From Escherichia phage phAPEC8, in the sequence record NC_020079.1: a DNA stretch of 64,000 bases; one strand, given 5' to 3'. Each line of letters begins with the position of its first letter. Position 1 is the stretch's first letter. Shown in pieces: positions 2,552 through 19,540 of the stretch. The position numbers and the translations under genes are program-made. The notes below the pieces were generated by a model. It was not told the DNA's origin, did no database searches, and saw only the letters and a program-made list of their open reading frames with translations.

Positions 2552-2561
2552 GGTGAAACAA

Positions 2562-3160: not shown

Positions 3161-3166
3161 AAAGTA

Positions 3167-3222
3167 TTGACACAGATCGCCAGTGTGCTAATATTTACCA
3201 CGTAGGGCGGCAATGGTGCCGC
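3167..3222 (+). promoter_or_regulatory. promoter (TTGACA/TAATAT) plus conserved 5' hairpin GTAGGGCGGCAATGGTGCCGC
   Basis: third exact copy of the 21-nt hairpin element. Confidence 0.6.
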
Positions 3223-3241
3223 CGATAATGAGGAAAATAAA

Positions 3242-3541: not shown

Positions 3542-3585
3542 TCAACAAAGGGGCGGCAACGCCCCACATCAGAAAGGAAAAGATT

Positions 3586-3822: not shown

Positions 3823-3876
3823 ACCATAAGCAGGGCGGTAACGCCCCATTAAACGCAATAGGAAGAGGATAGACGC

Positions 3877-4161
3877 ATGAAAAAGATGATCGCAGTAGTT
3901 GCCCTGGTTGTTGGTATTAACGCGCCTACACTGGCTAATGAGTTGCCAGAATCCATCACGCTAACCGACATCAACGCAGTGAATCGGATCGGTGTTAATT
4001 ATCGCCTATGCCTTGCCGCTAAAACTTTCCAGGACGGCACGACAGAGTACTACGGATTCGAGGGTATCCGCTGCGGTGAGCTTGCACGCGACCTTAAGGA
4101 AGATCCAGACCTTGAGGCCATACCGATGACCGTAAACGGTAAAGCCCACGTAAACCGCTAA
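3877..4161 (+). CDS. secreted/periplasmic small protein
   Basis: N-terminal signal-peptide-like MKKMIAVVALVVGINAPTLA. Confidence 0.55.
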   Translation: MKKMIAVVALVVGINAPTLANELPESITLTDINAVNRIGVNYRLCLAAKTFQDGTTEYYGFEGIRCGELARDLKEDPDLEAIPMTVNGKAHVNR

Positions 4162-4163
4162 CC

Positions 4164-4298
4164 ATGAGAAAGGTAATCATCACAATGGGGATCGTAGTAG
4201 CAACGCTGGCGCTTATCCCTTTCATGGTTGAACATGTGCTGATCAGTGTTGTCCTTGTAGTCAGTGACCTATTGGAAACGGTTGGCACCTGGTTTTAA
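4164..4298 (+). CDS. small membrane peptide (44 aa)
   Basis: ATG ORF below cutoff; hydrophobic; terminator-like hairpin + T-run at about 4307-4332. Confidence 0.35.
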   Translation: MRKVIITMGIVVATLALIPFMVEHVLISVVLVVSDLLETVGTWF

Positions 4299-4550
4299 GA
4301 TAATAAATAGGGCTTGCAATAGTCCTATTTTTTGTTATACTTGTTGAACGGGCGGCACCTGGGAGCAGGGGAAGATAATCACCGGAAGACTCCGCTATAT
4401 ATTGATAACTAACGCCTATCAAACAACAAAACATCAAAGTAACAAACTATCAAATCTTTACAATTCCACCTATTGACACCGGATCACGCTTACACTATTA
4501 TTTATCACGTAGGGCGAGCAATACAGCAAGCCCACAAAGAGGAAAATAAA

Positions 4551-4919
4551 ATGAGCAAATCAGCAATTAAAGCACTTGAAAAAGCACAAAAAGTGATCGC
4601 CACTTCCACCACTGGCACAAGTATTAATCTGGTCGCTTACTTGGAAGATGAAACTATCCGTAAAAATTGGCGTAATGCTGATTTACTGGCTTGCTTGTTG
4701 ATTAATAGTGTCGCTAATGCTTTCCAGTGTGAAACAGCCGAGAGCCTAGAACAAAACTTGTTCGATAATATGGACCAAGCAATTGAAACATATATCCAAT
4801 CTAATTTGGACAGCTGGAACAGTAAAACATGGCCTGACAGCTTACGCGATACAACTGATCAACTGATCCGCCTTGCCCTGATGGTTGAACGCGATAACGT
4901 TTACAACAGCACAAAGTAA
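4551..4919 (+). CDS. hypothetical protein
   Basis: internal ATG with SD AGAGGAAAA; track ATG 4473 lies inside the TTGACA promoter. Confidence 0.5.
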   Translation: MSKSAIKALEKAQKVIATSTTGTSINLVAYLEDETIRKNWRNADLLACLLINSVANAFQCETAESLEQNLFDNMDQAIETYIQSNLDSWNSKTWPDSLRDTTDQLIRLALMVERDNVYNSTK

Positions 4920-5058
4920 GATTATACAAGGGCGCACTAAGCGCCCTTTAACGTAAAGAAATGTAAATAATGCGCTATTCCCTATTGACAGGGGATCGGC
5001 GTTATATTATATTTAACTCACTGGCAGCAAACAACGAAACGAAACAAAGGACAACACC

Positions 5059-5478
5059 ATGAACATTAAATCAAATAATCCGGCTTACTCCTTCGATAAC
5101 GCTTTTTGTCACGGTAGCGCCGCCAAAGGCTTCGAAATCGATGGTAAATTGGTTATCGTGAACGTTGACGGGGAAGAGGTTGCAGTATATCCGGTAAACG
5201 ATGTTAAAAGCCGTTTACAATGCCGCATGGATGTTACCGCATATCAGCTTGATCCGATCCGTGTAGTTGCCCTGGTATTAGAGGAAGAGATCAAAGCAAT
5301 GCATCACAGCAATAAGTTTATTGGTGACGCGCAGGATAATATGAACGTTTGCCGCCATAAAGTTAATGAAGCACTGAAAGAATGCGGTTTTAAGGATCTG
5401 ATGATCAAACGTGATGAAAAATTCCGCTTTCGTAATGACCTGGCAAACCGGATCTACTCAATCTATGAAGCGTTATAA
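5059..5478 (+). CDS. hypothetical protein
   Basis: ORF after promoter TTGACA 4985-4990. Confidence 0.55.
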   Translation: MNIKSNNPAYSFDNAFCHGSAAKGFEIDGKLVIVNVDGEEVAVYPVNDVKSRLQCRMDVTAYQLDPIRVVALVLEEEIKAMHHSNKFIGDAQDNMNVCRHKVNEALKECGFKDLMIKRDEKFRFRNDLANRIYSIYEAL

Positions 5479-5493
5479 TTGACAACAAAACAA

Positions 5494-5520
5494 GGGGCGC
5501 ACCAAGCGCCCTTTCTTTTT
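5494..5520 (+). terminator. Rho-independent terminator, identical to 1-29
   Basis: GGGCGCACCAAGCGCCC + TTTCTTTTT. Confidence 0.7.
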
Positions 5521-7020
5521 GCCCGAACAATGTTGATAGCTTTCGCCTATGAAAAACCGACACAGAACAAAATTGAATAAATCGCGGTATCGAGCTAATC
5601 AACCATTAAACGAATAACCATACCTCCCAGGGTAACAGGCTGTTAGAGAGCCATTTAAAGCGGTTAAAATCGATCAACAACCAACAACAAACCATCAAAA
5701 ACACCCTTTTACCTCCTTTCTAGTGCAATGATAACCATTATCATCTATCCATGTTTATCTATGCAATATAAGTGCATAACTATAATGTTGATAATAGTTC
5801 GCAACAACTAACTAACCAACAACCTAAAACAATAAGCAAACTAATCATAATCAAAGGAATAATAGCAAGATGATTGATAACGACAAACAATCAAACCATG
5901 ATGAATACTAAGCAAGATAACGATAACACGACAAAACAACCAACTAACGAACAATAACAAACGAAACCATTAAAATAACAACTATTAGCAAAATAGTGCC
6001 TGAATGAAATCATTACAAAACGAATCATTCACAGGATCATCATTAGCACGCTATGCCGGACACATAGCGAGCTAATAATAAGCCAACTACACCCCAACAA
6101 TCATAACCATCGGTGATGGTTATTTCTTGTTACTGCGTAGCTTGCAATAATTGCAAGCGTAATTACGCTTACACTTATTGCGCTGGCTTATTATTAGCAT
6201 TATATGTAATTACCAAGATCATAACATTAGCGCAATAACAATAATCATTGTGGTAATTACAAGATGAGATCATTAGCAAGATGAATAATTGCACGTAGCA
6301 ACATGAGCGAATAGCGACAGGTTGCATAGTGTGCACATAGTGTATAAACATACAAGAAAATAAAGGCTAATCTTTTGGGGGCGAATACTATCGCGTAGCG
6401 ATATGTTGAGCACCTTCTCTTAAACGTAAATAAAATCAGAATAATCTTGATTTATTTTAGTTTTTATGTTAATAAACGTTTAAATAATAATCATTCTCAT
6501 ATAAATAATAGTCCGTTTGTCATGAGCGGGATTAGTTGACAGTGTTCCGTCATATGATGAAGTTGCCAACCCCTTGATAAATAAGCCTTTGTGTGATTTA
6601 TAATCAAGTGGCCCACCTTGTCGCTACGTTGGCATGAAGCTTGCATAAGTCATTGAATACGAATGATAATTATTCTCATTCGCATGATATTTGGGAATTG
6701 TCGCTGCGTGGACCTGACGGCCCGAAAATTCGCGTTAAGCACTTCTTACGTATACGCCATGATTTTTGCCATATGATATTGATTCTATTAGATATTCTTG
6801 CCATGATTGCCATGAAACAGGGTGTCCCGAAATAATCTCTCCCCGTAGATATTTTGGGTTACTTTTTATACAAGAGTGGGGTGTCAAAAATAATCGGTAT
6901 ATATGGGATAATTGATAGGAATCCCCTATGATAATTCGATTGTAATTCCCTAAGATTGATCGTATGATGTTGGTGATTGATGATTGCCATGAAAGATGGC
7001 TAACGATGAGAGGAGATTAT
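5521..7020. other. ORF-poor, A+C-skewed, palindrome-rich non-coding region
   Basis: no credible ORF; CAACAA-type low complexity; palindromes GCGTAATTACGC, TTGCAATAATTGCAA; repeated CATTAGCA and TTGCCATGA motifs. Confidence 0.6.
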
Positions 7021-7021
7021 C

Positions 7022-7366
7022 ATGCAAGAGAGTAAAAATGTTCCGTTGAGTAGTTTACGTCTAATGAAGTTTTACAAAGCTTGGCTTGCTGGTGAGGTAG
7101 AAGGTCACACAACGAGTGGCTTGTGCATATGTTTGATTAAGTATGTAGAGGGAACATATCCTGATGAACTGTTACCTCGTCTACAACAGGAGATGAAATC
7201 ACAGTTTATTGGTGCAGGACTGGATTACAATTTCCCGTTTAATGAAGGTGGTTATGAGGAATACACCTTCGAACATAAAAAACATATTTGCCATAAAAAC
7301 AAACATCGTATACAATGGGTGCTAGATAGAATTCAAGATTACGAAGGAGAGAAAAATGACAAATAG
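7022..7366 (+). CDS. paralog family A member 1 (FY..W / GLC / GL..PFN / R..WV.DR motifs)
   Basis: ORF with SD; shared motifs with six other ORFs. Confidence 0.6.
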   Translation: MQESKNVPLSSLRLMKFYKAWLAGEVEGHTTSGLCICLIKYVEGTYPDELLPRLQQEMKSQFIGAGLDYNFPFNEGGYEEYTFEHKKHICHKNKHRIQWVLDRIQDYEGEKNDK

Positions 7367-7724
7367 TATTCCGTTGAGCAGTGCAACATTGCTTCGCTTC
7401 TATAAAGCATGGATTGCCAACTATCCTGCAATGAATCGCACAACGAGTGGCTTATGTGGTTGTCTGGTAGATTATGTAGATGATTTTGTTGGTGAGACAA
7501 CTAGAGAAGAAGATAGAAGATGGCGGGATAGTTTGTTGGACCGTTTGAAATATGAAATGAGGAAACAATTTACATGTGCAGGGCTGGACTATAATCTTCC
7601 GTTCAATGCAGATTGCATGGATTACCTTTCAGAGTGTATAAACTTGGCGTGTCATACCAACACGTTACGTCTTCAATGGGTGAAAGACAGAATTGAAGAT
7701 GCAAATAATGCTTGCATTGAATAA
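7356..7724 (+). CDS. paralog family A member 2
   Basis: LLRFYKAWI, SGLCGCL, AGLDYNLPFN, RLQWVKDRI. Confidence 0.6.
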   Translation: MTNSIPLSSATLLRFYKAWIANYPAMNRTTSGLCGCLVDYVDDFVGETTREEDRRWRDSLLDRLKYEMRKQFTCAGLDYNLPFNADCMDYLSECINLACHTNTLRLQWVKDRIEDANNACIE

Positions 7725-7773
7725 AAATGTCTGTATAGTGGATGACATAACAGATAGCCAATGAGGAGATGAA

Positions 7774-7983
7774 ATGAAGAATTTGAAAACTGTCACAATG
7801 TTCTTGACTGATCCTACACGTGTGCAAGCACTGGCTAAAGCCAGCCGTGTAGCTGTAGAATTCCAAAACTTTAAGCCGTCCGTTGTGACAGGCAGTGAAA
7901 CGTGTGTTATCGATTTCATTAACGAATACTTCCGAGGGAATCCGGTTAGTCGTTACTTCATTAAGGGTCTGAAGGATGCATAA
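7774..7983 (+). CDS. hypothetical protein
   Basis: ORF with SD GAGGAG. Confidence 0.5.
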   Translation: MKNLKTVTMFLTDPTRVQALAKASRVAVEFQNFKPSVVTGSETCVIDFINEYFRGNPVSRYFIKGLKDA

Positions 7984-7984
7984 T

Positions 7985-8206
7985 ATGAAACGCATGAAAA
8001 TTCGTATTGAGAATGATGGTGGTTATAAAGGATTGGCACATGCAAAATTTCCACTTGTGTTGGAAGCTACGGTGGAATACAGTGGGCTTGCTCATGTGCG
8101 ATTCTCGAAGATGATGGAAGTGCAGGAATGGTTTTGGGACGAGATAGATGCACGAGAAGGAGAAGATTATGTTTTCTTTCCTCACGAATATAACATTGTC
8201 TATTAA
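7985..8206 (+). CDS. paralog family B member 1 (W.W..E...G.DYVFF motif)
   Basis: C-terminal motif shared with 11486-11707; second ATG chosen to avoid overlap. Confidence 0.5.
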   Translation: MKRMKIRIENDGGYKGLAHAKFPLVLEATVEYSGLAHVRFSKMMEVQEWFWDEIDAREGEDYVFFPHEYNIVY

Positions 8207-8209
8207 AGG

Positions 8210-8458
8210 TTGTGTGCAATGATCACACCACAACAGAATGAAGCCGCAATGGATCTTCTTGATAGTTTGTATTTCGATAATTGGTACTCTGAATGTGAAT
8301 GGATGAATATGCAAACTCTGAAAGAGAAGACAAAAGCGTTGATTACAGTAGATCAATTTCTTGCAGAGACGGAAAGAATGAATTATGATATGGCATCTCG
8401 CGCACGACGCGTTTCCATTTTCAATAAAATGTTAGCATTATGGGGAGGTAGAAAATGA
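8210..8458 (+). CDS. hypothetical protein
   Basis: ORF tiling. Confidence 0.5.
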   Translation: MCAMITPQQNEAAMDLLDSLYFDNWYSECEWMNMQTLKEKTKALITVDQFLAETERMNYDMASRARRVSIFNKMLALWGGRK

Positions 8459-8916
8459 GACAACTATCTATACTAGAAGCGCATGTGCAATGTGTTGTAG
8501 ATTATGTCAAAGAACACTCAAGTTTGTTGAATGTAACCTGTGCAGTGCAAAACGATGTAGGTATTGTCTGTGTGCAACATATCTTATCTGAAACTCGTTA
8601 TGAAGTATTTCGTGCCACGTTGTTTGGATGTGATCGAGTACATGTAAACTTCCTGGACTCCAATTATCGTTATGCTTTAGAAAATATTGATGATTATCTT
8701 CCTTGCTCTCCGACAGGATATGTAATGGTAACAGCAAACGAAGTAACGCCAAACAACAGTGAGCAGGAAGCTTTGTTACGGAAGAAAATACGCCAACTAC
8801 AAGTGTTGAATGAACTGAAAGAAGAGATTGAAAAAGAACTAAAAGAAGATTTTGGTATGCTTCCAAAAGACGCTTTGAAATGGTATGATGAACTAGGAGG
8901 AGAGAACAATGTTTAA
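8455..8916 (+). CDS. hypothetical protein
   Basis: ORF, ATGA overlap, SD GGGGAGG. Confidence 0.55.
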   Translation: MRQLSILEAHVQCVVDYVKEHSSLLNVTCAVQNDVGIVCVQHILSETRYEVFRATLFGCDRVHVNFLDSNYRYALENIDDYLPCSPTGYVMVTANEVTPNNSEQEALLRKKIRQLQVLNELKEEIEKELKEDFGMLPKDALKWYDELGGENNV

Positions 8917-9358
8917 AGAAGGTCATGTCTACCGTTTCCAGGATGAGGATTATATGCGATTATATTCTACCTTTGATAACAGCATTGCTGCTATCATTGG
9001 AGAGAATTTTTTCGAGGTGTTGAGCACTGATACAAATGGTAATATCTTGTCAATGGTTGTGATAGGTATGAGAGACGGTATTATCACTGCTGGTGATGGG
9101 GATCGTTACATAATCAATTCGGCTCATATAGATTATTTTGTTGACGGTGGTGGTCGTGGAAAACCTCAAGAAGAACCCGCAGTGAATTTTAAACACTATG
9201 CTATTGTTAAAGGTATGAATGTCCAACTGGTGTCACATTCTTACGAAGAGATCGCCACAGAAGCAAAAAAGATGAAGGAAGAATACCCAATTTCTACTGT
9301 TGAGATCTATGAGCGTATTGGTGTTGTTAGTATTGAGCCTACTGCGGTAATAAAATAA
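8909..9358 (+). CDS. hypothetical protein
   Basis: ORF, SD GGAGGAG. Confidence 0.55.
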   Translation: MFKEGHVYRFQDEDYMRLYSTFDNSIAAIIGENFFEVLSTDTNGNILSMVVIGMRDGIITAGDGDRYIINSAHIDYFVDGGGRGKPQEEPAVNFKHYAIVKGMNVQLVSHSYEEIATEAKKMKEEYPISTVEIYERIGVVSIEPTAVIK

Positions 9359-9367
9359 GGAGTTATT

Positions 9368-9805
9368 ATGTTCAAAGTTAATGCTGTTTACTGTTTCAAA
9401 AGTAAAGCTGCCTGTGAAGCTTTCTCTATGATCTCTGATGAAAATTTCAAAATGGCAGCTTTGATTGAAGGGTCTTGTTTCCGCGTCGAAGATGTTAGTG
9501 AATCAGGGTCTGTTTGCTCATTGACTTTATTGGACAGCGGGGATATTATTGAAGCTGGACAGTATCCGTTCAGAAGTTGGGAGATATTGTTAGCTCGCGG
9601 AGAGCGTAACTTTTTTATGTGTGTGTCTGCGGGGGAAGTTGTGAAAGAAACTAAGGATGTTTCTGTTTACAATTCTGAATTTATAAGTTATAGTGAGTAT
9701 CAACATCTGGAAGGCATTGTTGGTCACTTGTTATCTCTGATTGACGTTGAATGTGACCTGCCTGAATCATTGAAAGAAGAGTTGAAAGCATTAGATCTGT
9801 TATAA
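9368..9805 (+). CDS. hypothetical protein
   Basis: ORF, SD AAGGAG. Confidence 0.55.
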   Translation: MFKVNAVYCFKSKAACEAFSMISDENFKMAALIEGSCFRVEDVSESGSVCSLTLLDSGDIIEAGQYPFRSWEILLARGERNFFMCVSAGEVVKETKDVSVYNSEFISYSEYQHLEGIVGHLLSLIDVECDLPESLKEELKALDLL

Positions 9806-9832
9806 TGTTTCGCACAACGAAAGGAGAATAAG

Positions 9833-10132
9833 ATGAATCTGACCGAACAGTTACGCCGTATTGCAAAAGAAGCTTCCTTCAACTTCCCTGTTGAAGAAGT
9901 GATCGAGACATGTTTTGCTGAAGCACGAGCGGGAAACTCTTCAAGAAATTTCACGCCATCTGATTTTGGTCTGGATAATTCCCCTACCCACCCAGGGGAG
10001 ATCTACAATCAGGTGAAGTGGATGGATGAAGCAGTAGCAATTCTTCGTGAGCGTGGACTTATTGTTTATAAAGAAATGGATTTGAACGGAGCATACGAGT
10101 GGATCACTATTGATTGGTCGGAGGTGAAATGA
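9833..10132 (+). CDS. hypothetical protein
   Basis: ORF, SD AAGGAG. Confidence 0.55.
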   Translation: MNLTEQLRRIAKEASFNFPVEEVIETCFAEARAGNSSRNFTPSDFGLDNSPTHPGEIYNQVKWMDEAVAILRERGLIVYKEMDLNGAYEWITIDWSEVK

Positions 10133-10341
10133 TGGTTACTATTACATTGACAGTTACACAAGAGCAAGCAGAAGAATTGCGTGACGCAGTGGCATACATG
10201 GGACGTTCTTATTATATGCCTCATAAATCTCAAGATGTTTTTGCTACAGCCGTTGAGAAAGCTTTAAACAAATATCGAGAAACTCATGCCGTTCCTAAAG
10301 TATCAGCAGAAGAGTTTGGCACTTGGCACGAAGTTCACTAA
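10129..10341 (+). CDS. hypothetical protein
   Basis: ATG after GGAGGTG; track start 10114 is TTG. Confidence 0.5.
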   Translation: MMVTITLTVTQEQAEELRDAVAYMGRSYYMPHKSQDVFATAVEKALNKYRETHAVPKVSAEEFGTWHEVH

Positions 10342-10351
10342 GGAGGTTTCG

Positions 10352-10585
10352 ATGAAAGGTAACAAGATGAAAGTTAATCAGGTACCAAGCGCATACACTT
10401 TGTGGCTTGCGCGAGCGTTACACCAGACGATCAAAAACCCTAAGAAGCCAATGAAGAGCGGGAAGAAGTTTATGTCTAAGGGCAAAACAACCTTTGGCTT
10501 CACTCGTATGTCTGTTAAGATGAAAAGGCTGGGGTACAAGCCAAACTACGCTCGTTACCCTTCCGAATACAACTGGTTTGACTAA
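10352..10585 (+). CDS. small basic (Lys-rich) protein
   Basis: internal ATG with SD AAGGAGG. Confidence 0.5.
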   Translation: MKGNKMKVNQVPSAYTLWLARALHQTIKNPKKPMKSGKKFMSKGKTTFGFTRMSVKMKRLGYKPNYARYPSEYNWFD

Positions 10586-10598
10586 AAGGAGAAAGATT

Positions 10599-10775
10599 AT
10601 GGCTACTTTTCAACAATTGAAAGATGTTTCACGTTTAGTAAGAAAAATCCGAGAAGCAGACGCTGCTGTGCGGAATGCACTAACACCAGCAGAGCGTGAA
10701 GATCTTGAAGAGGAGGTGAAAACAGCCGAGAATGCTTTTGCTGTGTATCTTTCAACACTGCATACGGGAGGCTAA
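10599..10775 (+). CDS. hypothetical small protein
   Basis: ATG with SD AAGGAG. Confidence 0.5.
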   Translation: MATFQQLKDVSRLVRKIREADAAVRNALTPAEREDLEEEVKTAENAFAVYLSTLHTGG

Positions 10776-11090
10776 ATGTCAGAGGAACTTAAAGAATTTT
10801 ATCAAGCATATCATAACTGGCTGTTAGCTGGTGCTCCAGACAATAATCCTTTCTGGCATGATAAAGGTTTGTGCAGTTGCCTCTATCTTTGGTCTGGTGG
10901 TTATGATGATCTAAATTATGAAATGCAAATGCAATTCCGCGAAGCAGGATTGTCTGAAGAATACCCGTTTGATGACGGAGACTGGTTTAAATATGATTTT
11001 GCACAAAGAAACGGGCTATTGCATTTGAATGCTGCCCGTATAAAATGGGTAAAAGATCATGCTACACAGGAGGATGTGCAATGCCAATAG
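10776..11090 (+). CDS. paralog family A member 3
   Basis: EFYQAYHNWL, KGLCSCL, AGLSEEYPFD, RIKWVKDH. Confidence 0.6.
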   Translation: MSEELKEFYQAYHNWLLAGAPDNNPFWHDKGLCSCLYLWSGGYDDLNYEMQMQFREAGLSEEYPFDDGDWFKYDFAQRNGLLHLNAARIKWVKDHATQEDVQCQ

Positions 11091-11281
11091 TGTTTAGTTT
11101 CTTGGTAATTGTTATGGTTGTTCTTTTCGCGGCATGGCTTTGGGATTTTGACCCAGGAGCAGCGCAGCAAAGAGCTACAGACTGGAAAGAACAATGTATT
11201 GTGCTCAAACATGAACGAAATGCGGAGAAATTTCTTGACCTGGAGTGTGATCGCCTTGTAAGATACAAGCAAGATAAATAA
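11081..11281 (+). CDS. small membrane protein
   Basis: ATG with SD AGGAGG; N-terminal hydrophobic helix. Confidence 0.5.
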   Translation: MPIVFSFLVIVMVVLFAAWLWDFDPGAAQQRATDWKEQCIVLKHERNAEKFLDLECDRLVRYKQDK

Positions 11282-11295
11282 CCTTGAGGTGCAAA

Positions 11296-11484
11296 ATGAT
11301 AATTGAGATTAAACTTGAATATGCTGGGGCTGTTGCTCTGATCGCACAAATGCTTGGAGCAAAGATTGAAGAAGTGTATATCAATGCCTGGAGCGTAGAG
11401 ATTGATGTTCCTATGGACAACATTGCTAATCGCTTGCTGGTGGCAGAGTGTGAACGCACCAACATAATCTACAAAGGAGCATAA
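11296..11484 (+). CDS. hypothetical small protein
   Basis: ATG with SD GAGGTG. Confidence 0.45.
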   Translation: MIIEIKLEYAGAVALIAQMLGAKIEEVYINAWSVEIDVPMDNIANRLLVAECERTNIIYKGA

Positions 11485-11485
11485 T

Positions 11486-11707
11486 ATGAAAATTAGAGTT
11501 TGTGATGTATTGGGTTATGTTGGTTTTGAGAATGTTCAGATTCCTTTTATTGTTGAAGCACATCTTGTTAGTGATGATATGACAACATTCTTTGTTACGA
11601 TAGAAGAAATGTCCAAAGTTGAGGGATGGGAGTGGTTTGAAGAAGATGTTTGGGAAGGTTGTGATTACGTATTTTTCTCTGACGAAGTGAATGTTCTTTC
11701 GGAGTAG
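11486..11707 (+). CDS. paralog family B member 2
   Basis: EGWEWFEEDVWEGCDYVFFSDEVN matches 7985-8206 C-terminus. Confidence 0.5.
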   Translation: MKIRVCDVLGYVGFENVQIPFIVEAHLVSDDMTTFFVTIEEMSKVEGWEWFEEDVWEGCDYVFFSDEVNVLSE

Positions 11708-11709
11708 GT

Positions 11710-11916
11710 ATGTCTCGTTTTACAAAAGCAGTGTCCATATGTAAGAAACAGTATGAAAGTGATTACGGAATATTTAATATTCCAGCGGATCATACAGAGT
11801 ATTGTTCATGTGGTAGCAGAATGAAGAAAACAGTGATTTATGCGGATAATGGAGATGAACTTGTTCCGGTTATGGTTTGCAAAGCTTGTCATTCTGTTAA
11901 AACATTAAAAGCGTAA
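11710..11916 (+). CDS. small Cys-rich (zinc-ribbon-like) protein
   Basis: CSCGSR ... CKACH pairs. Confidence 0.45.
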   Translation: MSRFTKAVSICKKQYESDYGIFNIPADHTEYCSCGSRMKKTVIYADNGDELVPVMVCKACHSVKTLKA

Positions 11917-12011
11917 GGAGTCGGGACACCCGACGATTGGAGCTAAAAATTTTGCGTACAACCCTTTCCGCCCAACAGGGGCGCGTCGGGTAAATAAAGA
12001 GGAGAGTTTAT

Positions 12012-12410
12012 ATGAAAAAGATCATCGTAGGTTTATTGTTACTCATTGCATCACTCGGAACAGCAAATGCGTCTCAAGTTTATGAGTGTGTGTCAGAGGT
12101 GGTTGTTAAAAATCTGAAAGGTGAAGTGATTTCTGGTCCTAAGAAAATGGCTTCTGTTGTCATTAATAAAGATAACTCCTTTATCCTTAAAAATTCAGGT
12201 GGTGCTTTGATGAGTGGCATTCTGCAATACACAGGAGAAAAAAGTAAAGATGGTAGTGCTATGTATGGTTCACAACAGTTTATTGGCACTACTGAAGTTG
12301 TGATGATGCGCACAGAGTATCGAGACACTTTAGCTTGGTTTGCATTTCTAAAAAATGATAAAACAATAACGAATGTTCTTACTCTAGAAGCTGATTGTAC
12401 GCAACGATAA
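12012..12410 (+). CDS. secreted protein
   Basis: signal-peptide-like MKKIIVGLLLLIASLGTANA; SD AGAGGAGAG. Confidence 0.55.
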   Translation: MKKIIVGLLLLIASLGTANASQVYECVSEVVVKNLKGEVISGPKKMASVVINKDNSFILKNSGGALMSGILQYTGEKSKDGSAMYGSQQFIGTTEVVMMRTEYRDTLAWFAFLKNDKTITNVLTLEADCTQR

Positions 12411-12419
12411 GGGGGATTT

Positions 12420-12875
12420 ATGACTAAAATGAGACATTACGCTGTAAACTGCAACGATGCTTGGCGTTTGTGTCCTGATGATCCGACAGAAGGCACATTT
12501 GTAAGATATGAAGATTATAAAAAGTTATCGGATGCTGTAATCGCATTGTTAACTGATATCCGTTCACGTTATCCAGGACAAGATTTCACTTGCCCTCACA
12601 TCAAACTTCTTGCTTGCCTGGTAGAAGGTGAGAAAGAAGTGGAAGATGGCTTCAAGCGTGTAGAGTATCAAGGTGAAACTTTAGATGTTCCTGAATTTGT
12701 TAATTATATTGCAACAGATTCAAGTGGCGAGCGTTATGGTTACACTCATAAACCGGAGATTCCAGATTTCGCTTATGCGTGGCGTATTCCTTATGAAGTT
12801 TTTAATGTTGCAGATTGCTGGTATTTAGGAGAAGGAAACAACCTTAATTGGCGTGATTCCTTGGTTCAGGTTTAA
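12420..12875 (+). CDS. hypothetical protein
   Basis: ORF, SD AAGGGGGA. Confidence 0.55.
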   Translation: MTKMRHYAVNCNDAWRLCPDDPTEGTFVRYEDYKKLSDAVIALLTDIRSRYPGQDFTCPHIKLLACLVEGEKEVEDGFKRVEYQGETLDVPEFVNYIATDSSGERYGYTHKPEIPDFAYAWRIPYEVFNVADCWYLGEGNNLNWRDSLVQV

Positions 12876-12879
12876 CAAT

Positions 12880-13143
12880 ATGAAAGAGACATTACCAGCA
12901 GCATACCGTTTGAATGATGAACGTATTTGGGAGTGGACCGACGTTTCTTGTTTTTACCCTGAAATAGTTCAATATTGGCGAGCAAAAGGGTGTGTTGTAG
13001 TTATCAACCCATGTGGACCAGTGGATGAAGATTGCTTGTATCTCGATGGAAAGTGGCACAGTTATTGTCGCTGGCCTTTTGAGTGGATGTGTAAAGAAGA
13101 TCTCCCAGAGGGTTGGGAGTATCCAAAAGCAAATAGGAGATAA
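12880..13143 (+). CDS. hypothetical Cys/Trp-rich protein
   Basis: ATG 12880 avoids overlap; track start is GTG 12853. Confidence 0.45.
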   Translation: MKETLPAAYRLNDERIWEWTDVSCFYPEIVQYWRAKGCVVVINPCGPVDEDCLYLDGKWHSYCRWPFEWMCKEDLPEGWEYPKANRR

Positions 13144-13144
13144 T

Positions 13145-13507
13145 ATGTCTAAAGATTTTGTTGAAATGTTTGTCAAAGATGAAGAAACTGGTTTAGGCAC
13201 AGGTTTCATTTGTGAAGAAACCTTTAAACGTGAACAAGAAAAAGCTATTCTTATGCGAAACTATGATCACGCATTAGAACAATGGAAAAATGCAGAACAA
13301 AAATGCAAAAACCTTTATGCAGAAAATAGAAAACTACAAGATCAAATGGAGTTGTTAGCTATCAGTTTACGATCTCTCATTTTGGCTGTAGAAGATGGTT
13401 TTAAAAATCCAGATGGTTTTCCTGTGAGCGATATTGAACATGATTTGTATCTTGCTCGTGGTGCTTACTTCTATGTTAAACAGAAGTCTGTAGAAGGAGA
13501 GAAGTGA
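13145..13507 (+). CDS. hypothetical protein
   Basis: internal ATG with SD AATAGGAGA. Confidence 0.5.
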   Translation: MSKDFVEMFVKDEETGLGTGFICEETFKREQEKAILMRNYDHALEQWKNAEQKCKNLYAENRKLQDQMELLAISLRSLILAVEDGFKNPDGFPVSDIEHDLYLARGAYFYVKQKSVEGEK

Positions 13508-13704
13508 TGGAAGAAAAACTGGAACGTATTATCGAGTTAGCCATGTCTATTGGCTACGACGATTGTTTTCTCCAAACTATTGGAGAAACAGAGAACGATT
13601 ACGACTCTTGGGTGAAAGAGTTGGAAGAACTTAAAACTTCCTTGATTGCTGACTTTGCTGAAGCAGAGGATAAAGCAGATCGTTACAACTATCTGTGTCG
13701 ATAA
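13507..13704 (+). CDS. hypothetical small acidic protein
   Basis: ATG after SD GAAGGAGAG. Confidence 0.5.
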   Translation: MEEKLERIIELAMSIGYDDCFLQTIGETENDYDSWVKELEELKTSLIADFAEAEDKADRYNYLCR

Positions 13705-13766
13705 GCCTTGACATTTATTTTATGTATGGTATACATACATTATCAACGTGAGCAAGGTGGTGTAAT

Positions 13767-14039
13767 ATGAATAAAGATCGGTTTCTTTCTTTAGTCGCGG
13801 AAGCTCCTTTTGATGTTCTTGGGGTGAGATTATGGAAAGACAGAAACTATGGGTTAGATGTTCAAACATACTCTCTTTGGTTGGTTGGGGAACACAGCTT
13901 AGATGAAAGCTTGTGCATGGGTAGGGATTCTCGTTCCCTCTGTTTAAAGTTCAGAAGCTTAGAACGCGCAAACAAAGAGCAAGAAAAACTAACGAGGTGG
14001 CTAAATGAAAACAAGCGCAAGGTTGATGGAGTTTTATAA
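13767..14039 (+). CDS. hypothetical protein
   Basis: ORF after promoter TTGACA 13707-13712; SD AAGGTGG. Confidence 0.5.
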   Translation: MNKDRFLSLVAEAPFDVLGVRLWKDRNYGLDVQTYSLWLVGEHSLDESLCMGRDSRSLCLKFRSLERANKEQEKLTRWLNENKRKVDGVL

Positions 14040-14331
14040 AATTTATCTAGCATGGATTGATGTTGGTGCTCCTGATGGTAAACCTTTTCGGCGGGATTGC
14101 GGTTTGTGTGCCAACTTATTCGACTATGTGCACGCGGATGGCTACAATCCCCTTATAACAACCTTGTCAGATGAAATGCACGCACAGTTTTACCACAAAG
14201 GGTTGAGTCAAGAATTACCCTTCAATGAGAACTACGATGCATATGTCTTAGAATCAGATGCAGAGGTATGTCACCTGAATGTGGACAGGATTAATTGGGT
14301 AAGAGATCGTATTGCAGAGGAGGATGAATAA
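14005..14331 (+). CDS. paralog family A member 4
   Basis: MEFYKIYLAWI, CGLCANL, KGLSQELPFN, RINWVRDRI. Confidence 0.6.
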   Translation: MKTSARLMEFYKIYLAWIDVGAPDGKPFRRDCGLCANLFDYVHADGYNPLITTLSDEMHAQFYHKGLSQELPFNENYDAYVLESDAEVCHLNVDRINWVRDRIAEEDE

Positions 14332-14558
14332 TGTCGGATTATAACTGGTATGAACTTGAGGCTGTTTGTCAGTTTTATGACTCAATAGTTCTGCGTGATC
14401 CAATCTGTCAAGAATTGAGTCGCCGTGCAAGTGCATTGGCAATCCGTGTTAAAATAAACGGTTGGAACGCAGATTTGGAAAAAGAGTTGGAATTTCTCTT
14501 AGAAAACACGCGGGTCTTCCGCAAAGTGTTCCCTGAATGGTTTGAGATGGAAGAATGA
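14331..14558 (+). CDS. hypothetical protein
   Basis: ORF, SD GAGGAGG. Confidence 0.55.
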   Translation: MSDYNWYELEAVCQFYDSIVLRDPICQELSRRASALAIRVKINGWNADLEKELEFLLENTRVFRKVFPEWFEMEE

Positions 14559-14773
14559 TCATGTGGATTGTGCGTCTTAAGTATGATGGCAAGTTTCCGT
14601 GGGAGAAAGATGTTTGTGCTTGTGATTCGGCAGCACATGCCAAAGCAGCGGGTCAGGCAGTAGTTGACATGTATAACAACACTTCCGTTGATCCAGAAAT
14701 GGCAGGTGTTACAATGAGCATGTTCACTTACTATTCTTTTGAGGTTTACTATCATGAAGGAGAGTGGAAATGA
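14555..14773 (+). CDS. hypothetical protein
   Basis: ORF, overlaps neighbours by 4 nt. Confidence 0.5.
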   Translation: MIMWIVRLKYDGKFPWEKDVCACDSAAHAKAAGQAVVDMYNNTSVDPEMAGVTMSMFTYYSFEVYYHEGEWK

Positions 14774-15090
14774 GCGAAGAACTATTAACATTTTACCGCA
14801 CGTATTTGGCATGGTTGGAAGCTGGTGCTCCTGAAGGCGAACCGTTCACCCGTTGCACAGGTTTGTGCTCGAACCTCTATGATTTTTACGATATGGGTGA
14901 AAGCGAACGATACGAACCCGTACTGGATGAAATGCATGAGCAGTTCTACCACAAAGATTTGGTTATGGTGTTGCCTTTCAACAGTAATTTTGGAAAGTAC
15001 ACCTTAGAAGCGGAAAAAAGCCGTTGTCATTTGAATGTGGATCGTGTGAACTGGGTAAAAGAACGTGTAGCAGAAGAAATAAATAGTTGA
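14770..15090 (+). CDS. paralog family A member 5
   Basis: MSEELLTFYRTYLAWL, TGLCSNL, LPFN, RVNWVKERV; ATG chosen over GTG 14764. Confidence 0.6.
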   Translation: MSEELLTFYRTYLAWLEAGAPEGEPFTRCTGLCSNLYDFYDMGESERYEPVLDEMHEQFYHKDLVMVLPFNSNFGKYTLEAEKSRCHLNVDRVNWVKERVAEEINS

Positions 15091-15144
15091 CAGAAGGATC
15101 TGTCTTTGTCATAATCATCTCATCGAAACAAAGAGGAGAAAATC

Positions 15145-15699
15145 ATGAAAAAGTTTATTTGCACCCGTTCCACTAACAGTGATATCCTTGTAGGTAAGGT
15201 TATCAAAGGAGAACTCTTCCATGCAAACGGTAAGAAATATATTCTGCTGAAAGATTCTTTCAACGGGGAATATCCGCGCTGCACTTTCTTCAATTACAAC
15301 ACTCCATTTGCTTTAGAAGGAGATGCTTGGGACTGGGCTGAACTTCATCCTTTCTGTGAAGATGGACAGACAGAAGAGCAGGAAGAATCTACGGGAAGTT
15401 TACGTGATAAATTGCGTAATAAAGCACTGCAAGCAAATTCCCATTTTACTGAAATGGTAGACGCCGTTCTATTAGAGATTGAAGATTGTGCGGAACAAGG
15501 GAAGTTTGAAAAATACTTTGAACCTTCCAGTTTTGGTTTGTGCAATAACCCTTCTTCTTATGAACAGATAAGTGAACAGAAAAGAGGGGCAAATGTTGTA
15601 GCTACAATACTACGTGCAAAAGGTTTGGATGTAACATTGGCAACCGCAGAGCACAGTATTTTTGGGATTATCAAACACATCATTATTAGTTGGAACTAA
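15145..15699 (+). CDS. hypothetical protein
   Basis: ORF after promoter TTGACA(15087)/CATAAT with inverted repeat GACAG..CTGTC in the spacer. Confidence 0.55.
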   Translation: MKKFICTRSTNSDILVGKVIKGELFHANGKKYILLKDSFNGEYPRCTFFNYNTPFALEGDAWDWAELHPFCEDGQTEEQEESTGSLRDKLRNKALQANSHFTEMVDAVLLEIEDCAEQGKFEKYFEPSSFGLCNNPSSYEQISEQKRGANVVATILRAKGLDVTLATAEHSIFGIIKHIIISWN

Positions 15700-15709
15700 A
15701 GGAGAGAAT

Positions 15710-16009
15710 ATGCAAGTTGAAGACCTGATCCACATCCTGAATAAAGCCAAAGAGAAGGGTGCTATCAAAGACTGGAAACGTGAAACAAGTGAAGATTTAT
15801 CTCACTGTTGTCGAGAATTTTACATCGAAGGTATTGCTAACGATCATTATACTATTGAATGGTATATCAACTTAATGACTCTTAAGCACGGTTCGTTTGA
15901 GGTTTGGTTTGATGACATTGATGTAAATGGTTTTCATCCTGGCTATAAAATCGCTATGCAGTTATCTTATCGTAGAGAAGTTGTAGCACATTTAGGTTTA
16001 CATAACTAA
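15710..16009 (+). CDS. hypothetical protein
   Basis: ATG with SD AAGGAGAG. Confidence 0.5.
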   Translation: MQVEDLIHILNKAKEKGAIKDWKRETSEDLSHCCREFYIEGIANDHYTIEWYINLMTLKHGSFEVWFDDIDVNGFHPGYKIAMQLSYRREVVAHLGLHN

Positions 16010-16019
16010 GGAGAAAAGA

Positions 16020-16343
16020 ATGCAAGCAGTTGTTAACGAAGCTATTATGAACTTATCCTTCTTGTTAGCTGGTTTAGGAGGTGTCCTCATAGGTTTGGCT
16101 CTTATCTGGTGTATTCGTCGATTAATCGGGTACCGACAAAAAGGTGTTTCATGTTTTGTATCTTACAATTTTACAACTGCTTACAGCAATGAGGTTGGAT
16201 CTGGCAATGCTCAAGCATTTTTACCAACATATCCTCCTACGGTGGAAGATATTCGAAACTTGGAAGTAGAACTTATGGGACTAGGTGATAACTATACATC
16301 TCTAGTTATTCAAAATATTTTTCGACTAAAACAGGGGGAGTGA
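16020..16343 (+). CDS. membrane protein
   Basis: TM-like LSFLLAGLGGVLIGLALIWCI; SD AAGGAGAA. Confidence 0.55.
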   Translation: MQAVVNEAIMNLSFLLAGLGGVLIGLALIWCIRRLIGYRQKGVSCFVSYNFTTAYSNEVGSGNAQAFLPTYPPTVEDIRNLEVELMGLGDNYTSLVIQNIFRLKQGE

Positions 16344-16556
16344 ATGAAGGTACATTACCCTCATCCGTTTGATCCTAAAAACAAAGCCGTAATTCTTCGT
16401 CAGTGGCAACGGGTTTGTCGTACTAAATGTCCAATCAATAGCCCACACAATGTAGACAAGGACTATCTTGGGACATTTGTTGAATACACTTACATAGACA
16501 AAAACAAGCGTAAACAACATGTCGAGGAATACTGCTTAAGAGTAGAATGGCTGTAA
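16344..16556 (+). CDS. hypothetical small protein
   Basis: ORF, SD GGGGGAG. Confidence 0.5.
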   Translation: MKVHYPHPFDPKNKAVILRQWQRVCRTKCPINSPHNVDKDYLGTFVEYTYIDKNKRKQHVEEYCLRVEWL

Positions 16557-16626
16557 ATAATAAATACCTTGACAAGTGTTTATTCGTTTTGTAAAGTGAG
16601 AATACAGCAATGGTTTAGGAGTGGTT

Positions 16627-17298
16627 ATGAAAAAGTTTGTTGTTTACAGTCGTCTTTCTAAACAGAAAAAAGGTGAGGCACAATATGGTATGGAGAGCCA
16701 AGAGAATGATATCCGTTACTTCTTAGACTCTGTGCCTGATGCGGAAGTTATTGGTCAATTTTCTGAATACTATTCGGGTAAGGGCGATTGGAAGCAACGT
16801 AAGGAACTGGTTAAAGCGGTTGAAATGTGTAAAGCTACCGGAGCAACTTTATTGGTAGCTAAAGTTGACCGCTTGGGTCGTAACAACGCCTCCGTAGCAA
16901 CTCTTCTAGAGATGATCGATGTTAAGATAGCCATCATGCCAGACGCAGATAAAATGGTTATACAGCTTCTGTCTGTTCTGGCTGAACAAGAAGTTAGAGG
17001 TATTGCTGATCGTATTAAAAAGGGTCTTGCTGTAGCAAAAAGCAAAGGTGTTTTATTAGGCAGTGCTAATCCTAAAACTGCCGCTGCACGTAGAAAAGGG
17101 AAAATGGAATACAACTCTGTTAAAGCAGACGCTTTTGCAGAGACATTCCGTGAACGCTTGGAGATCCTTAGAGATTTAAATACACCTTACAAAACTATTG
17201 CTGAAAAATTCAATAGTAAGAAAATAGCAACAGCACGTGGTGGTAAATGGGATGCTAAAACTGTTTCTCGTTTGTGTGCCAGACTGAACATTAAATAG
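16627..17298 (+). CDS. small serine recombinase (resolvase/invertase family)
   Basis: YSRLS (Ser nucleophile context), LLVAKVDRLGRN, E-helix LSVLAEQEVRGIADR; own TTGACA promoter at 16571. Confidence 0.7.
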   Translation: MKKFVVYSRLSKQKKGEAQYGMESQENDIRYFLDSVPDAEVIGQFSEYYSGKGDWKQRKELVKAVEMCKATGATLLVAKVDRLGRNNASVATLLEMIDVKIAIMPDADKMVIQLLSVLAEQEVRGIADRIKKGLAVAKSKGVLLGSANPKTAAARRKGKMEYNSVKADAFAETFRERLEILRDLNTPYKTIAEKFNSKKIATARGGKWDAKTVSRLCARLNIK

Positions 17299-17306
17299 GA
17301 GAGGAT

Positions 17307-17729
17307 ATGAAACAAGAAAATGAATCTGTAGATCACTTAATCATGCTGTCAGCCCTTTTTGCCGGATGGGACGTATTTTTTGAAAATTTGTTCAATTCTT
17401 CTACAGATGGTTCCGATTTTATGCGCCAGTTTAAACGACGAACTGTTGAGGACTATGCTTTCTATTCAGGTCGGATTGAAAAAGGTTACGAAGATACAAA
17501 TACAACACTCACCATTAAAGTTTTAGATGTGATGTTTAGTGTTATAGATGCTATCGACGAAAGTCTTCCGATCCTAGACAATTGTAATACGAAAGCCTAT
17601 GTTTACAAAATAGCTCGTGCTTATGTGTCTGCAAACAGTTGTCTTCTTTCCACCCAGATTGCCGTGAACAATCTTGCCAACTTGTTTGATGAAGGAGAAA
17701 CTTTTTATGACAATCGATTTGAAGTGTAA
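17307..17729 (+). CDS. hypothetical protein
   Basis: ORF, SD TAGGAGAGG. Confidence 0.5.
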   Translation: MKQENESVDHLIMLSALFAGWDVFFENLFNSSTDGSDFMRQFKRRTVEDYAFYSGRIEKGYEDTNTTLTIKVLDVMFSVIDAIDESLPILDNCNTKAYVYKIARAYVSANSCLLSTQIAVNNLANLFDEGETFYDNRFEV

Positions 17730-18072
17730 GAGGATTCTTTTAGATTTCTATAATAATTGGTTAGAACACCTCCGTCTCTTTCCAAGAGAAAGTGGTTACG
17801 CTGATGTTGGCTTATGCCGAGGTCTGCGTATGTATATAAGTGATGAATTTCGGGCAGAGCATTCTTTAGCATATTCTGTTTATGGTATGCAATTAGCCAG
17901 TTTTGAAAACGCTGGCTTAGATACAACTTTCCCATTTAACACAGCAAAATCTTTTGATCAAGAGTGTAAGGAAAAACGTTGCATGTTTAATGAAAAACGT
18001 GTACAGTGGGTTAAGGATCGAGTTAAACAACTGGAACAAGAGTTGGATTTCTTCTATGATGAGGCAGAATAA
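17707..18072 (+). CDS. paralog family A member 6
   Basis: LLDFYNNWL, VGLCRGL, AGLDTTFPFN, RVQWVKDRV; ATG after GAAGGAGAA. Confidence 0.55.
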   Translation: MTIDLKCKRILLDFYNNWLEHLRLFPRESGYADVGLCRGLRMYISDEFRAEHSLAYSVYGMQLASFENAGLDTTFPFNTAKSFDQECKEKRCMFNEKRVQWVKDRVKQLEQELDFFYDEAE

Positions 18073-18344
18073 TGGATAGACAAACCTTAAAAACAATGGC
18101 AGATGCCACTAATTCCCCGTACTTTGAAAAAGTAAGTAAATTGGTAGCTCAAGCCGCAGAGGAAGGATATTATAACATAAACATCCATAACCCAAGTCTT
18201 ATACTAGAAATGCCAAGTGATAAGAAGATACAAGAGAGTATCTGTGAAGGTATTGTTAGTTACTGGCGCGAGCGTGGGTGTGGTGCAAACATGGCTTTAG
18301 ACAGTGCAAACATTGTAAGATATATAAATATTTCTTGGGGGTGA
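18072..18344 (+). CDS. hypothetical protein
   Basis: ORF tiling. Confidence 0.5.
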   Translation: MDRQTLKTMADATNSPYFEKVSKLVAQAAEEGYYNINIHNPSLILEMPSDKKIQESICEGIVSYWRERGCGANMALDSANIVRYINISWG

Positions 18345-18348
18345 TTTT

Positions 18349-18960
18349 ATGATTCAATGCACTCATATCCAAATTACTTGGAGAGATGAACTTTACCATT
18401 TGGGACAATTTACTGTAGGGGAAACATACCCTGTCATTAAACATAATCCTAACATCGCAAACTTTGATAGGATGGTTCTTGTTGAGGACGATCTGGGTCA
18501 AACTTATTCTTTAGATCTAAAATATCCGTTTTCTTACGGCTACGATTGGATCGTTACTTTTGAAGACGTGGAGGAAAATAAAACAATGAACGAAAAAAAT
18601 TCTTGGTATTATCGTTGTGAACTGCCGCCAGTAGGTGAAAAGGTTATCTTTGTTCCTGATTTGGAAAGATATTCTTGGGACAGTTCTTATTCTATTCCTA
18701 AAGAAGGCACCGAAGTTGAAGTTATTGCACATCGCACAACTTCGCATGGTAACGATGTAGCAGTTGTTTTCTGGGATGATGAAGGCGCTGCTTGTGCAGG
18801 TGGCTTTGTTGCAGGTAATTTTGAACCCCTGCCAGATCCTTTGAAGGAGGCAATTTTAGGCGTAGCTTCTTTTGGACTCTCTTACACATCTGCACAAGAG
18901 ATCGTAGAAGGTATTTTAAACGGTACCGTTCCAAACGAAATTTTTAAACAGATTAAATAA
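18349..18960 (+). CDS. hypothetical protein
   Basis: ORF, SD GGGGGTGA; hairpin CACCCCGTTCTGCGGGGTG + T-rich tract follows. Confidence 0.55.
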   Translation: MIQCTHIQITWRDELYHLGQFTVGETYPVIKHNPNIANFDRMVLVEDDLGQTYSLDLKYPFSYGYDWIVTFEDVEENKTMNEKNSWYYRCELPPVGEKVIFVPDLERYSWDSSYSIPKEGTEVEVIAHRTTSHGNDVAVVFWDDEGAACAGGFVAGNFEPLPDPLKEAILGVASFGLSYTSAQEIVEGILNGTVPNEIFKQIK

Positions 18961-19011
18961 TAGTTGCACCCCGTTCTGCGGGGTGTTATTGTATATGTAA
19001 AGGAGGCGCTA

Positions 19012-19350
19012 ATGTATTACACTGAAGACTACATATTGTATAACTTTTTTAAAGGTTGGTTGAAATGGGCGGAACAAGCTCCTGTCGGAGATTGTGTTTT
19101 TCCTTGGGATTCTCGTCAAGGCTTGTGTCGTTGTTTGGAAGATTGGCTTATAACCACAAACTACAATTCAGAAACTAAGAAATCTACATCAAACAGATTA
19201 AAAATGTTGTTTGAAGAAGATGGTTTAGATCCAATTTATCCTTTCGGTGAGGAAAGTTTCCACAATGGTCTTTTCCTTGGCACTCAACATTATGATAAAG
19301 ATCGTGTAGATTGGGTAAAAGAAAAGGTAGCACAGTATGAATGGGGTTAA
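19012..19350 (+). CDS. paralog family A member 7
   Basis: FFKGWLKW, QGLCRCL, DGLDPIYPFG, RVDWVKEKV; ATG after AAAGGAGG. Confidence 0.55.
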   Translation: MYYTEDYILYNFFKGWLKWAEQAPVGDCVFPWDSRQGLCRCLEDWLITTNYNSETKKSTSNRLKMLFEEDGLDPIYPFGEESFHNGLFLGTQHYDKDRVDWVKEKVAQYEWG

Positions 19351-19540
19351 GAATTATCACCGCTGGTTAGAAAGCTATCTTAAGAAATGTGAACTTGGTG
19401 TTCCAGGTTATACTTACGACACGGACGAGATTCTTGATGAAATGGAAGTTTGGTTTAAAGAGCCTCGTGAACTATTGGAAAACATTCTAATGGCTTGGGA
19501 TGGTACGGCACAAAGCATTGAAGGAGATAGAAATGAGTAA
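19337..19540 (+). CDS. hypothetical small protein
   Basis: ORF but no clear SD. Confidence 0.35.
   Translation: MNGVKNYHRWLESYLKKCELGVPGYTYDTDEILDEMEVWFKEPRELLENILMAWDGTAQSIEGDRNE

Follow-up and report, generated by a model that had tools for sequence, protein, structure and literature searches.

The closest described relatives of the genes considered here are the members of PHROG 2510, a phage protein family without a Pfam entry, a solved structure, or an assigned function, which includes gp3 of Escherichia phage N4 (YP_950481). A wider precedent is phage T4, in which Alt, ModA, and ModB are diverged, early, host-modifying paralogs within one virulent phage; these three are ADP-ribosyltransferases, and their fold and catalytic residues are known. 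Of all parts of large virulent phages, including therapeutic candidates such as the phAPEC8-like phages, small early gene blocks are understood least. We examined a 64,000-nucleotide (nt) stretch of Escherichia phage phAPEC8 (NC_020079.1; hereafter ‘the window’, meaning the whole stretch), in which a + strand block of about 60 small genes contains seven genes, F1 to F7 (Table 1), whose products belong to this family. An initial model-generated interpretation (hereafter ‘the sequence-only reading’) had taken these products to be diversifying paralogs of the kind used for host takeover or anti-defense.

We found that all seven genes genuinely encode proteins and are paralogs, sharing one ~100-amino acid (aa), five-helix domain carried by phages. 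All seven open reading frames (ORFs) are present on the + strand where the sequence-only reading had placed them, encode 104–122 aa, and start at correctly called ATG codons, with a Shine–Dalgarno (SD) motif 5–9 nt 5′ of the ATG in 7/7 genes. Longer GTG/TTG starts for F5, F6, and F7 were weighed and rejected; for F7, the ATG at 19012 is preferred because a TTG start at 18964 would begin inside, and its reading frame would cross, a terminator-like hairpin (18966–18986) that is also annotated as a terminator in phage Schickermooser. The proposal that these proteins form a paralogous family of about 110 aa was borne out by leave-one-out hidden Markov models (HMMs), which, run against the 670 window ORFs, recovered each copy (E=9e-16 to 4e-37), with pairwise BLASTP identities among the seven of 22–51%. 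The shared motifs (FY..WL, GLC..L, GL....PF, and R..WV) occupy matching columns of the 7-way alignment, such that both the collinearity and the statistical support of the motif set hold; the invariant columns are M1, L14, F17, G33-L34-C35, L38, F62, L67, P72-F73, R96, W99, and V100. The flanks are divergent, as had also been claimed, with DNA similarity confined to patches of 31–53 nt, and patches this short indicate that the duplications are old. A six-frame profile scan of the window for an eighth copy returned only these seven (next match E=0.04), which constitute the largest paralog family in the window; besides it we found only two weaker pairs.

All seven proteins match PHROG 2510 over profile positions of about 4–113, and PHROGs 6418 and 27059 more weakly, each of the three being labeled ‘unknown function’. 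N4 gp3 matches phrog_2510 (E=7.8e-24) as well as our family HMM (E=7e-22), and a tblastn search with F4 matched N4 at 1226–1525, the location of gp3 (E=1e-5). It is equal in length to the seven proteins, carries the same motifs, and is a member by direct sequence similarity, present as one copy in N4 vs. seven in the phAPEC8 window. The sequence-only reading had not recognized the family, which stands insofar as no characterized family matches, and falls insofar as the family is already catalogued as PHROG 2510 with N4 gp3 in it. No clear match to a well-characterized family emerged from any of the collections searched: Pfam, NCBIfam, and PADLOC yielded no family above curated threshold for the 7 proteins, 38 homologs, or 135 diverse members (just scattered single-sequence matches, all sub-threshold), the PDB contained no similar chain by sequence-profile search or fold comparison, and Foldseek against BFVD matched only uncharacterized phage proteins of the same family.

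The family is widespread. An exhaustive profile search recovered 1,925 clusters (50% identity, E≤1e-3), about 1,000 of them at ≤1e-10, and word-indexed homolog searches with a broad alignment or consensus sequence made almost no additions. By tblastn it is found in 257 phage records, the carriers being Stephanstirmvirinae, 134–145 kb Escherichia phages outside that subfamily (e.g. TH18, A7_1), N4-like phages of Escherichia, Achromobacter, Erwinia, Rhizobium, and Klebsiella, coliphages of about 47–48 kb (e.g. Sf12, IME207, Phleasolo) and of about 60 kb (PTXU04, a Xuquatrovirus, among them), and Pectobacterium, Ralstonia, and Pseudomonas phages; structure matches in BFVD add Delftia and Burkholderia phages. 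The sole plasmid match is a P1-like phage-plasmid, whose variant of the protein also occurs in E. coli chromosomes; there it belongs to a lambdoid prophage and lies in a run of small genes, hokD, DUF968, and rusA among them, that separates the replication genes from the gene for antiterminator Q. The lambdoid nin region is a classic non-essential, delayed-early position; the prophage member occupies a nin-type position like the accessory genes found there, but is not homologous to any named nin gene. At the C-terminus, the prophage and P1-like proteins are each extended by about 50 aa. When 480 nt of the P1-like member were used as a blastn query, 1,333 of 5,426 complete E. coli genomes gave partial matches (80–90% identity) and just 20 gave full-length ones; part of this gene, probably the C-terminal extension or a flank, is thus common to a very widespread prophage gene. 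A narrow peptide-pattern scan of 100,044 bacterial genomes was empty, yet we rejected the idea that the family is absent from bacteria, given the E. coli prophage copies found by blastn.

The N4 gp3 gene lies directly after the genes of the early cofactors gp1 and gp2 in the early region at the left genome end, the family gene of N4-like phages is always within the first few kilobases of the genome, and the PTXU04 copies sit in a terminal small-gene block; accessory blocks of small genes are where the family is found in many unrelated phages. We found no neighbor gene that is conserved across unrelated phages, and none outside the subfamily; the family is a stand-alone gene without a conserved partner across unrelated phages. 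GenBank already contains the family's sequences, annotated as hypothetical proteins, PHROGs lists the family, and large virulent phages are familiar carriers of orphan paralog families in blocks of early type. There seems to be no earlier description of how large and widespread the family is, of its link to N4 gp3, or of the fold, the independent expansions, the self-fusions, and the invariant residues, none of which we found described in the searchable literature; nor did we find there any account of N4 gp3 function or any mention of phrog_2510 or of the motif strings.

The AlphaFold2 model of F4 is all-alpha, with five helices (predicted local distance difference test [pLDDT] score 94.8). 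Across 217 aligned domains, conservation was highest for C35 (99%, 214/217), P72 and F73 (about 99%), and R95 (98–100%), followed by F10, Y11, W17, G33, L34, F62, and W98 (at least 89% each), N92 (88%), Q61 (80%), E57 (78%), and H90 (75%, 162/217), the last of which gives way to Y, W, M, or P in about 18% of members, F6 having Met. Helical periodicity places R95 centrally on the side of helix 5 that is buried, where it may be a structural keystone. Losses of E57 and Q61 go together, with 33 domains lacking both vs. about 10 expected under independence. The variability of H90 and the lack of E57 and Q61 in F6 and F7 speak against a common catalytic site. The segment from helix 2 to helix 3 differs in length by >20 residues between paralogs. 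The seven proteins are mildly acidic (isoelectric point [pI] 4.5–6.2, net charge –2 to –10) and have neither a signal peptide nor a membrane segment; a lipoprotein ‘lipobox’ reading of the GLC motif was rejected on the missing signal peptide and a wrong –1 residue.

Some homologs consist of two or three domain copies per polypeptide (e.g. gp339 of Burkholderia phage BcepSaruman). We found only such self-fusions and none to other known domains, and the extensions of P0169, P0046, P0114, P0173, and the P1-like protein gave no significant Pfam match. The model of one natural two-domain fusion, P0039, is confident (pLDDT 94.9), and its predicted template modeling (pTM) score of 0.82 points to a fixed packing of the two domains. 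The F1/F2 junction, ATGACAAATAG, is an 11-nt overlap, one of four tandem junctions with this arrangement (ATGNNNNNTAA/TAG; ATG...TAA/TAG), which come from three phages that are unrelated or distant (Table 1). Either translational coupling or a shared route of tandem duplication would fit. By Rosetta-stone reasoning from the tandem-domain fusions and these overlaps, the single-domain proteins probably form homo- or heterodimers.

The copies themselves are old, and each is conserved. In a distance tree every window copy falls in its own tight orthologous clade, with long branches between clades, and this combination implies that the duplications predate the genus Phapecoctavirus (subfamily Stephanstirmvirinae), which comprises phAPEC8-like myoviruses with genomes of about 150 kb. 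The ratio of nonsynonymous to synonymous polymorphism (pN/pS), obtained from seven related genomes (Schickermooser, phiWec179, AV125, REC, WPEC2, Ro121c4YLVW, and Mt1B1_P17), was 0.01–0.29 per copy, and 0.14 for the pooled family vs. 0.17 for other block genes. Purifying selection thus maintains every copy, while gain, loss, and occasional recombination act on whole copies; the idea of diversifying paralogs, put forward in the sequence-only reading, is not supported as an ongoing process, given the one-clade-per-copy tree and these ratios. The multi-copy state to which that reading drew attention varies across phages, from one copy in N4 and three in PTXU04 to 6–9 in Phapecoctavirus genomes, among which single copies have been gained or lost: F5 is missing from Schickermooser, REC, and Ro121c4YLVW, F1 was lost in WPEC2, F4 is missing from Klebsiella phage ZCKP1, and phiWec179 carries extra copies, a triple tandem among them. 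F3 is present in all seven other Phapecoctavirus regions except that of phiWec179, which has a diverged clade member. A public protein, P0007, is a chimera of the N-terminal part of F1 and the C-terminal part of F2, the product expected from unequal recombination between the F1/F2 tandem pair. The three tandem copies of PTXU04 form a clade of their own, indicating that the expansion there was independent, and other phages have therefore expanded the family independently.

Several observations bear on dispensability and timing. In CRISPRi-ART, a transcriptome-wide knock-down screen on laboratory E. coli, PTXU04_00085, 86, and 87 were all scored ‘Not Fit’ (supplementary file 16), and the authors’ own HHpred and AlphaFold annotation left these homologs ‘unknown’ (PMC11879866). 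The single knock-downs in PTXU04 being without fitness cost, and copies being naturally absent in close relatives, the family has the character of a non-essential accessory gene. Sigma-70-like promoters are present in and 5′ of the block, in a number not above that of a shuffled control.

We tentatively favor, at somewhat less than an even chance, the interpretation that the paralogs are stoichiometric binders of host factors, constituting a takeover or anti-defense set. The seven proteins would be made early from host sigma-70 promoters and would act as homo- or heterodimers, through binding and not through catalysis; a conserved scaffold (L7, F10, Y11, W17, GLC35, F62, PF73, R95, and W98) would bear the variable-length helix 2–3 segment, and the paralogs would differ in which host protein, or which allele of a host protein, they bind, such that the set would amount to a dispensable host-takeover or anti-defense toolkit whose breadth comes from copy number. 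The positions of the homologs (the N4 early region, the lambdoid nin-type site, and the PTXU04 terminal block) fit such a role, as does their dispensability in PTXU04, and repeated lineage-specific expansion usually marks genes at the phage–host interface. A number of points nevertheless weigh against it. The orthologs show no sign of arms-race evolution in pN/pS, and dispensability of single copies could reflect redundancy. C35 and R95 are as conserved as the hydrophobic core, and E57, Q61, N92, and H90 are kept in most members, a pattern more usual where members share a ligand or an active site than where each binds its own target. The putative dimer is drawn from one AlphaFold pTM value together with gene arrangement, the literature yielded no Phapecoctavirus transcriptome, and no target, interaction, or phenotype is on record for any member. 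The motif strings are also absent from the supplements of three anti-defense papers (two experimental accessory-gene screens and one machine-learning prediction preprint), which means no more than that these papers did not report the family.

The strong conservation of a Cys, an Arg, and several polar residues lends some weight to two rival readings. In one, the proteins would be ligand sponges, in which C35, E57, Q61, N92, H90, R95, W98, and Y80 form a pocket, possibly at the dimer interface, that sequesters a small molecule (e.g. an immune signaling nucleotide), with different paralogs covering different ligands in the manner of Acb2, Tad1, and Tad2, albeit with an unrelated fold. The proteins are small, helical, probably oligomeric, dispensable, and found in unrelated phages, their polar and aromatic residues are kept in distant members, and the joint loss of E57 and Q61 suggests one functional unit given up by some subfamilies; even so, we regard a sponge as unlikely. 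Slightly more doubtful is a thiol-dependent enzyme or a metal or redox protein, with C35 as nucleophile or metal ligand alongside R95 and H90/N92; a molecule of either the host or the phage would be modified. C35 begins helix 2 in addition to its near-universal presence, and the helix dipole at a helix N-terminus can lower the pKa of a cysteine; R95 is essentially invariant, and most members have an H-x-N motif in the loop before helix 5. However, the replacement of H90 in about a fifth of members, F6 included, sits poorly with catalysis, a ~100-aa all-alpha domain has no similarity to any enzyme fold or family, and seven co-resident copies at such low mutual identity would be unusual for an enzyme. 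The proteins might instead serve the phage internally, aiding or regulating its transcription, replication, or assembly (e.g. as a polymerase adaptor), or they might be a selfish or near-neutral family whose copies persist and multiply via repeat recombination with little benefit to the phage. Copy-number polymorphism, the F1/F2 chimera, the recurring 11-nt tandem overlap (as expected from unequal crossing-over), and knock-downs without fitness effect all agree with near-neutrality, but the strong purifying selection on every copy (pN/pS down to 0.01), the retention of orthologs across genera, the conservation of the fold over about 1,900 clusters, and the lack of a nuclease or other mobility domain do not. 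The range of carrier phages, the dispensability, and the strong purifying selection make both of these explanations less likely; we consider an internal role improbable, much as for the sponge and the enzyme, and near-neutrality very improbable indeed. The leftover probability goes to functions outside these readings.

A more specific form of the anti-defense interpretation, as unlikely as the sponge, is that the family represents a new structural class of phage counter-defense, in which five-helix homo- and heterodimers with a pocket centered on the invariant Cys and Arg would capture an immune signal or block an immune sensor, deployed in arrays of 3–9 paralogs. If true, N4 gp3 and about 1,900 related clusters would constitute a previously unrecognized anti-immune system, and the arrays, with some paralogs translationally coupled or fused, would provide combinatorial breadth.

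The seven genes lie within bases 7000–19400, which share 96–97% identity with >50 Escherichia phages of the genus Phapecoctavirus, in whose records nearly all genes of the matching region are annotated ‘hypothetical protein’. Between about 6 kb and 24 kb, the GC skew is positive; negative values from about 24000 to 58000 suggest – strand genes there.

Table 1. Coordinates of the seven family genes and associated features (window positions unless another record is named).
Feature	Position	Strand	Size or structure	SD motif	phrog_2510 E	pN/pS	Remarks
F1	7022..7366	+	114 aa	GAGGAG	5.6e-26	0.07	Opens the block; leave-one-out E=1e-28
F2	7356..7724	+	122 aa	GAAGGAG	2.1e-25	0.23	Tandem to F1, 45% identity to F1; long insertion from helix 2 to helix 3 in the alignment
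F3	10776..11090	+	104 aa	GGGAGG	8.9e-29	0.01	
F4	14005..14331	+	108 aa	GAGGTGG	3.5e-32	0.28	Copy modeled by AlphaFold2
F5	14770..15090	+	106 aa	GAAGGAG	8.3e-31	0.29	Nearest paralog F4, 51% identity; presence varies among close relatives
F6	17707..18072	+	121 aa	GAAGGAG	3.5e-26	0.08	Divergent; without consensus E57, Q61, H90
F7	19012..19350	+	112 aa	AAGGAGG	6.1e-27	0.06	Most divergent copy; without E57 and Q61; N92D
Terminator-like hairpin	18966..18986	+	9-bp stem, 6 GC pairs, T-rich tail				Just 5′ of F7
Bidirectional terminator	23786-23809		Perfect 10-bp stem				Strong; end of the + strand small-gene block
11-nt overlap, F1/F2	7356-7366						
11-nt overlaps, record L010	2849-2859, 3126-3136						
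11-nt overlap, record L009 (phiWec179)	11894-11904						

Upstream of F1, positions 1–5520 hold an array of very small + strand genes, several of them preceded by a repeated promoter–hairpin module: a near-consensus sigma-70 promoter, CCTATTGACA...TACACTAT (e.g. 4469–4498, 4981–5010), is followed by a GC-rich hairpin, GTAGGGCGGCAATGGTGCCGC (536–595, 1767–1826, 3182–3241, 4495–4516), and terminator hairpins, GGGCGCACCAAGCGCCCTTT, are repeated at 1–26, 4930–4955, and 5495–5520. Judged by these signals, the array resembles a series of immediate-early mini-genes, each transcribed on its own, and the same layout is found in phiWec179, ZCKP1, and alia. Directly 5′ of F1, an AT-rich region of about 1.5 kb (5520–7020) is rich in short repeats, both direct and inverted (AATRATAAYYATTMTCAT, for instance, occurs three times), and has no convincing ORF and no Rfam match; unannotated gaps of similar size lie at the same place in phiWec179 (L009, 9612–11157), ZCKP1 (L017, 10333–11875), and alia (L016, 16435–18256). 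This region could be regulatory or an origin.

Other genes of the block include a paralog pair of 73–76 aa (7976–8206 and 11486–11707; BLASTP E=1e-11), and a 99-aa protein (9833–10132) related to the C-terminal half of a 184-aa protein (15145–15699; E=3e-7), of which set the ORF at 18072–18344, likewise ending in ...ISWG, may by eye be a third member. The adjacent genes at 8909–9358 and 9368–9805 both match phrog_3710. A serine recombinase or DNA invertase (16627–17298, +; Pfam Resolvase E=5e-18; phrog_125 ‘DNA invertase’) is under very strong purifying selection (pN/pS 0.01), and its ortholog is called ‘methionine ABC transporter ATP-binding protein’ in several GenBank records, a label that seems mistaken. 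The gene at 11081–11281 (+), which overlaps the end of F3, encodes a small protein with an N-terminal hydrophobic helix (MPIVFSFLVIVMVVLFAAWLW...); a homolog lies directly 3′ of a family member of a different clade in alia (L016, 20335–20544), and one gene further on in phiWec179 (L009, 23492–23698), an association that may be a recurrent pairing or simply synteny. Far downstream, 59143–61148 (+) holds 11 tRNA genes (Met, Arg, Ser, Tyr, Asn, Thr, Gly, Gln, Pro, Ile, and Met).

The family is a good experimental target, and not in itself surprising. It offers a tractable entry point into early gene blocks, given its many clusters, its presence in N4, PTXU04, lambdoid prophages, and P1-like plasmids, a confident model of a fold without a solved match, and the invariant residues C35, P72, F73, R95, and W98, which can be mutated. 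Were a target found, hundreds of ‘hypothetical proteins’ would be annotated at once and N4 gp3 would be given a function; were the copies neutral, they would provide a clean example of gene-family turnover in phage genomes.

Finally, we compared the family with known systems. Ocr, the ArdA-type DNA mimics, and Acr proteins are likewise small, acidic, helical, dispensable, early or accessory, and exchanged between unrelated phages, but have no sequence or fold similarity to the family, which is far less acidic than the DNA mimics, consists of multi-copy deep paralogs, and has a conserved Cys and Arg; by its pI, its net charge, and the lack of a fold match it is not of the Ocr/ArdA type. A papain-like cysteine hydrolase was rejected, the fold being all-alpha and the Cys invariant but accompanied by His90 in only three quarters of domains. 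Acb2, Tad1, and Tad2 resemble the family in being ~100 aa, probably oligomeric, widespread, and dispensable on hosts without the matching defense system, and the conserved polar and aromatic residues of the family could line a pocket as in these sponges, from which it differs in fold. Unlike Alt, ModA, and ModB of T4, the family shows no enzyme signature, while sharing with them the maintenance of several diverged paralogs within one virulent phage genome.

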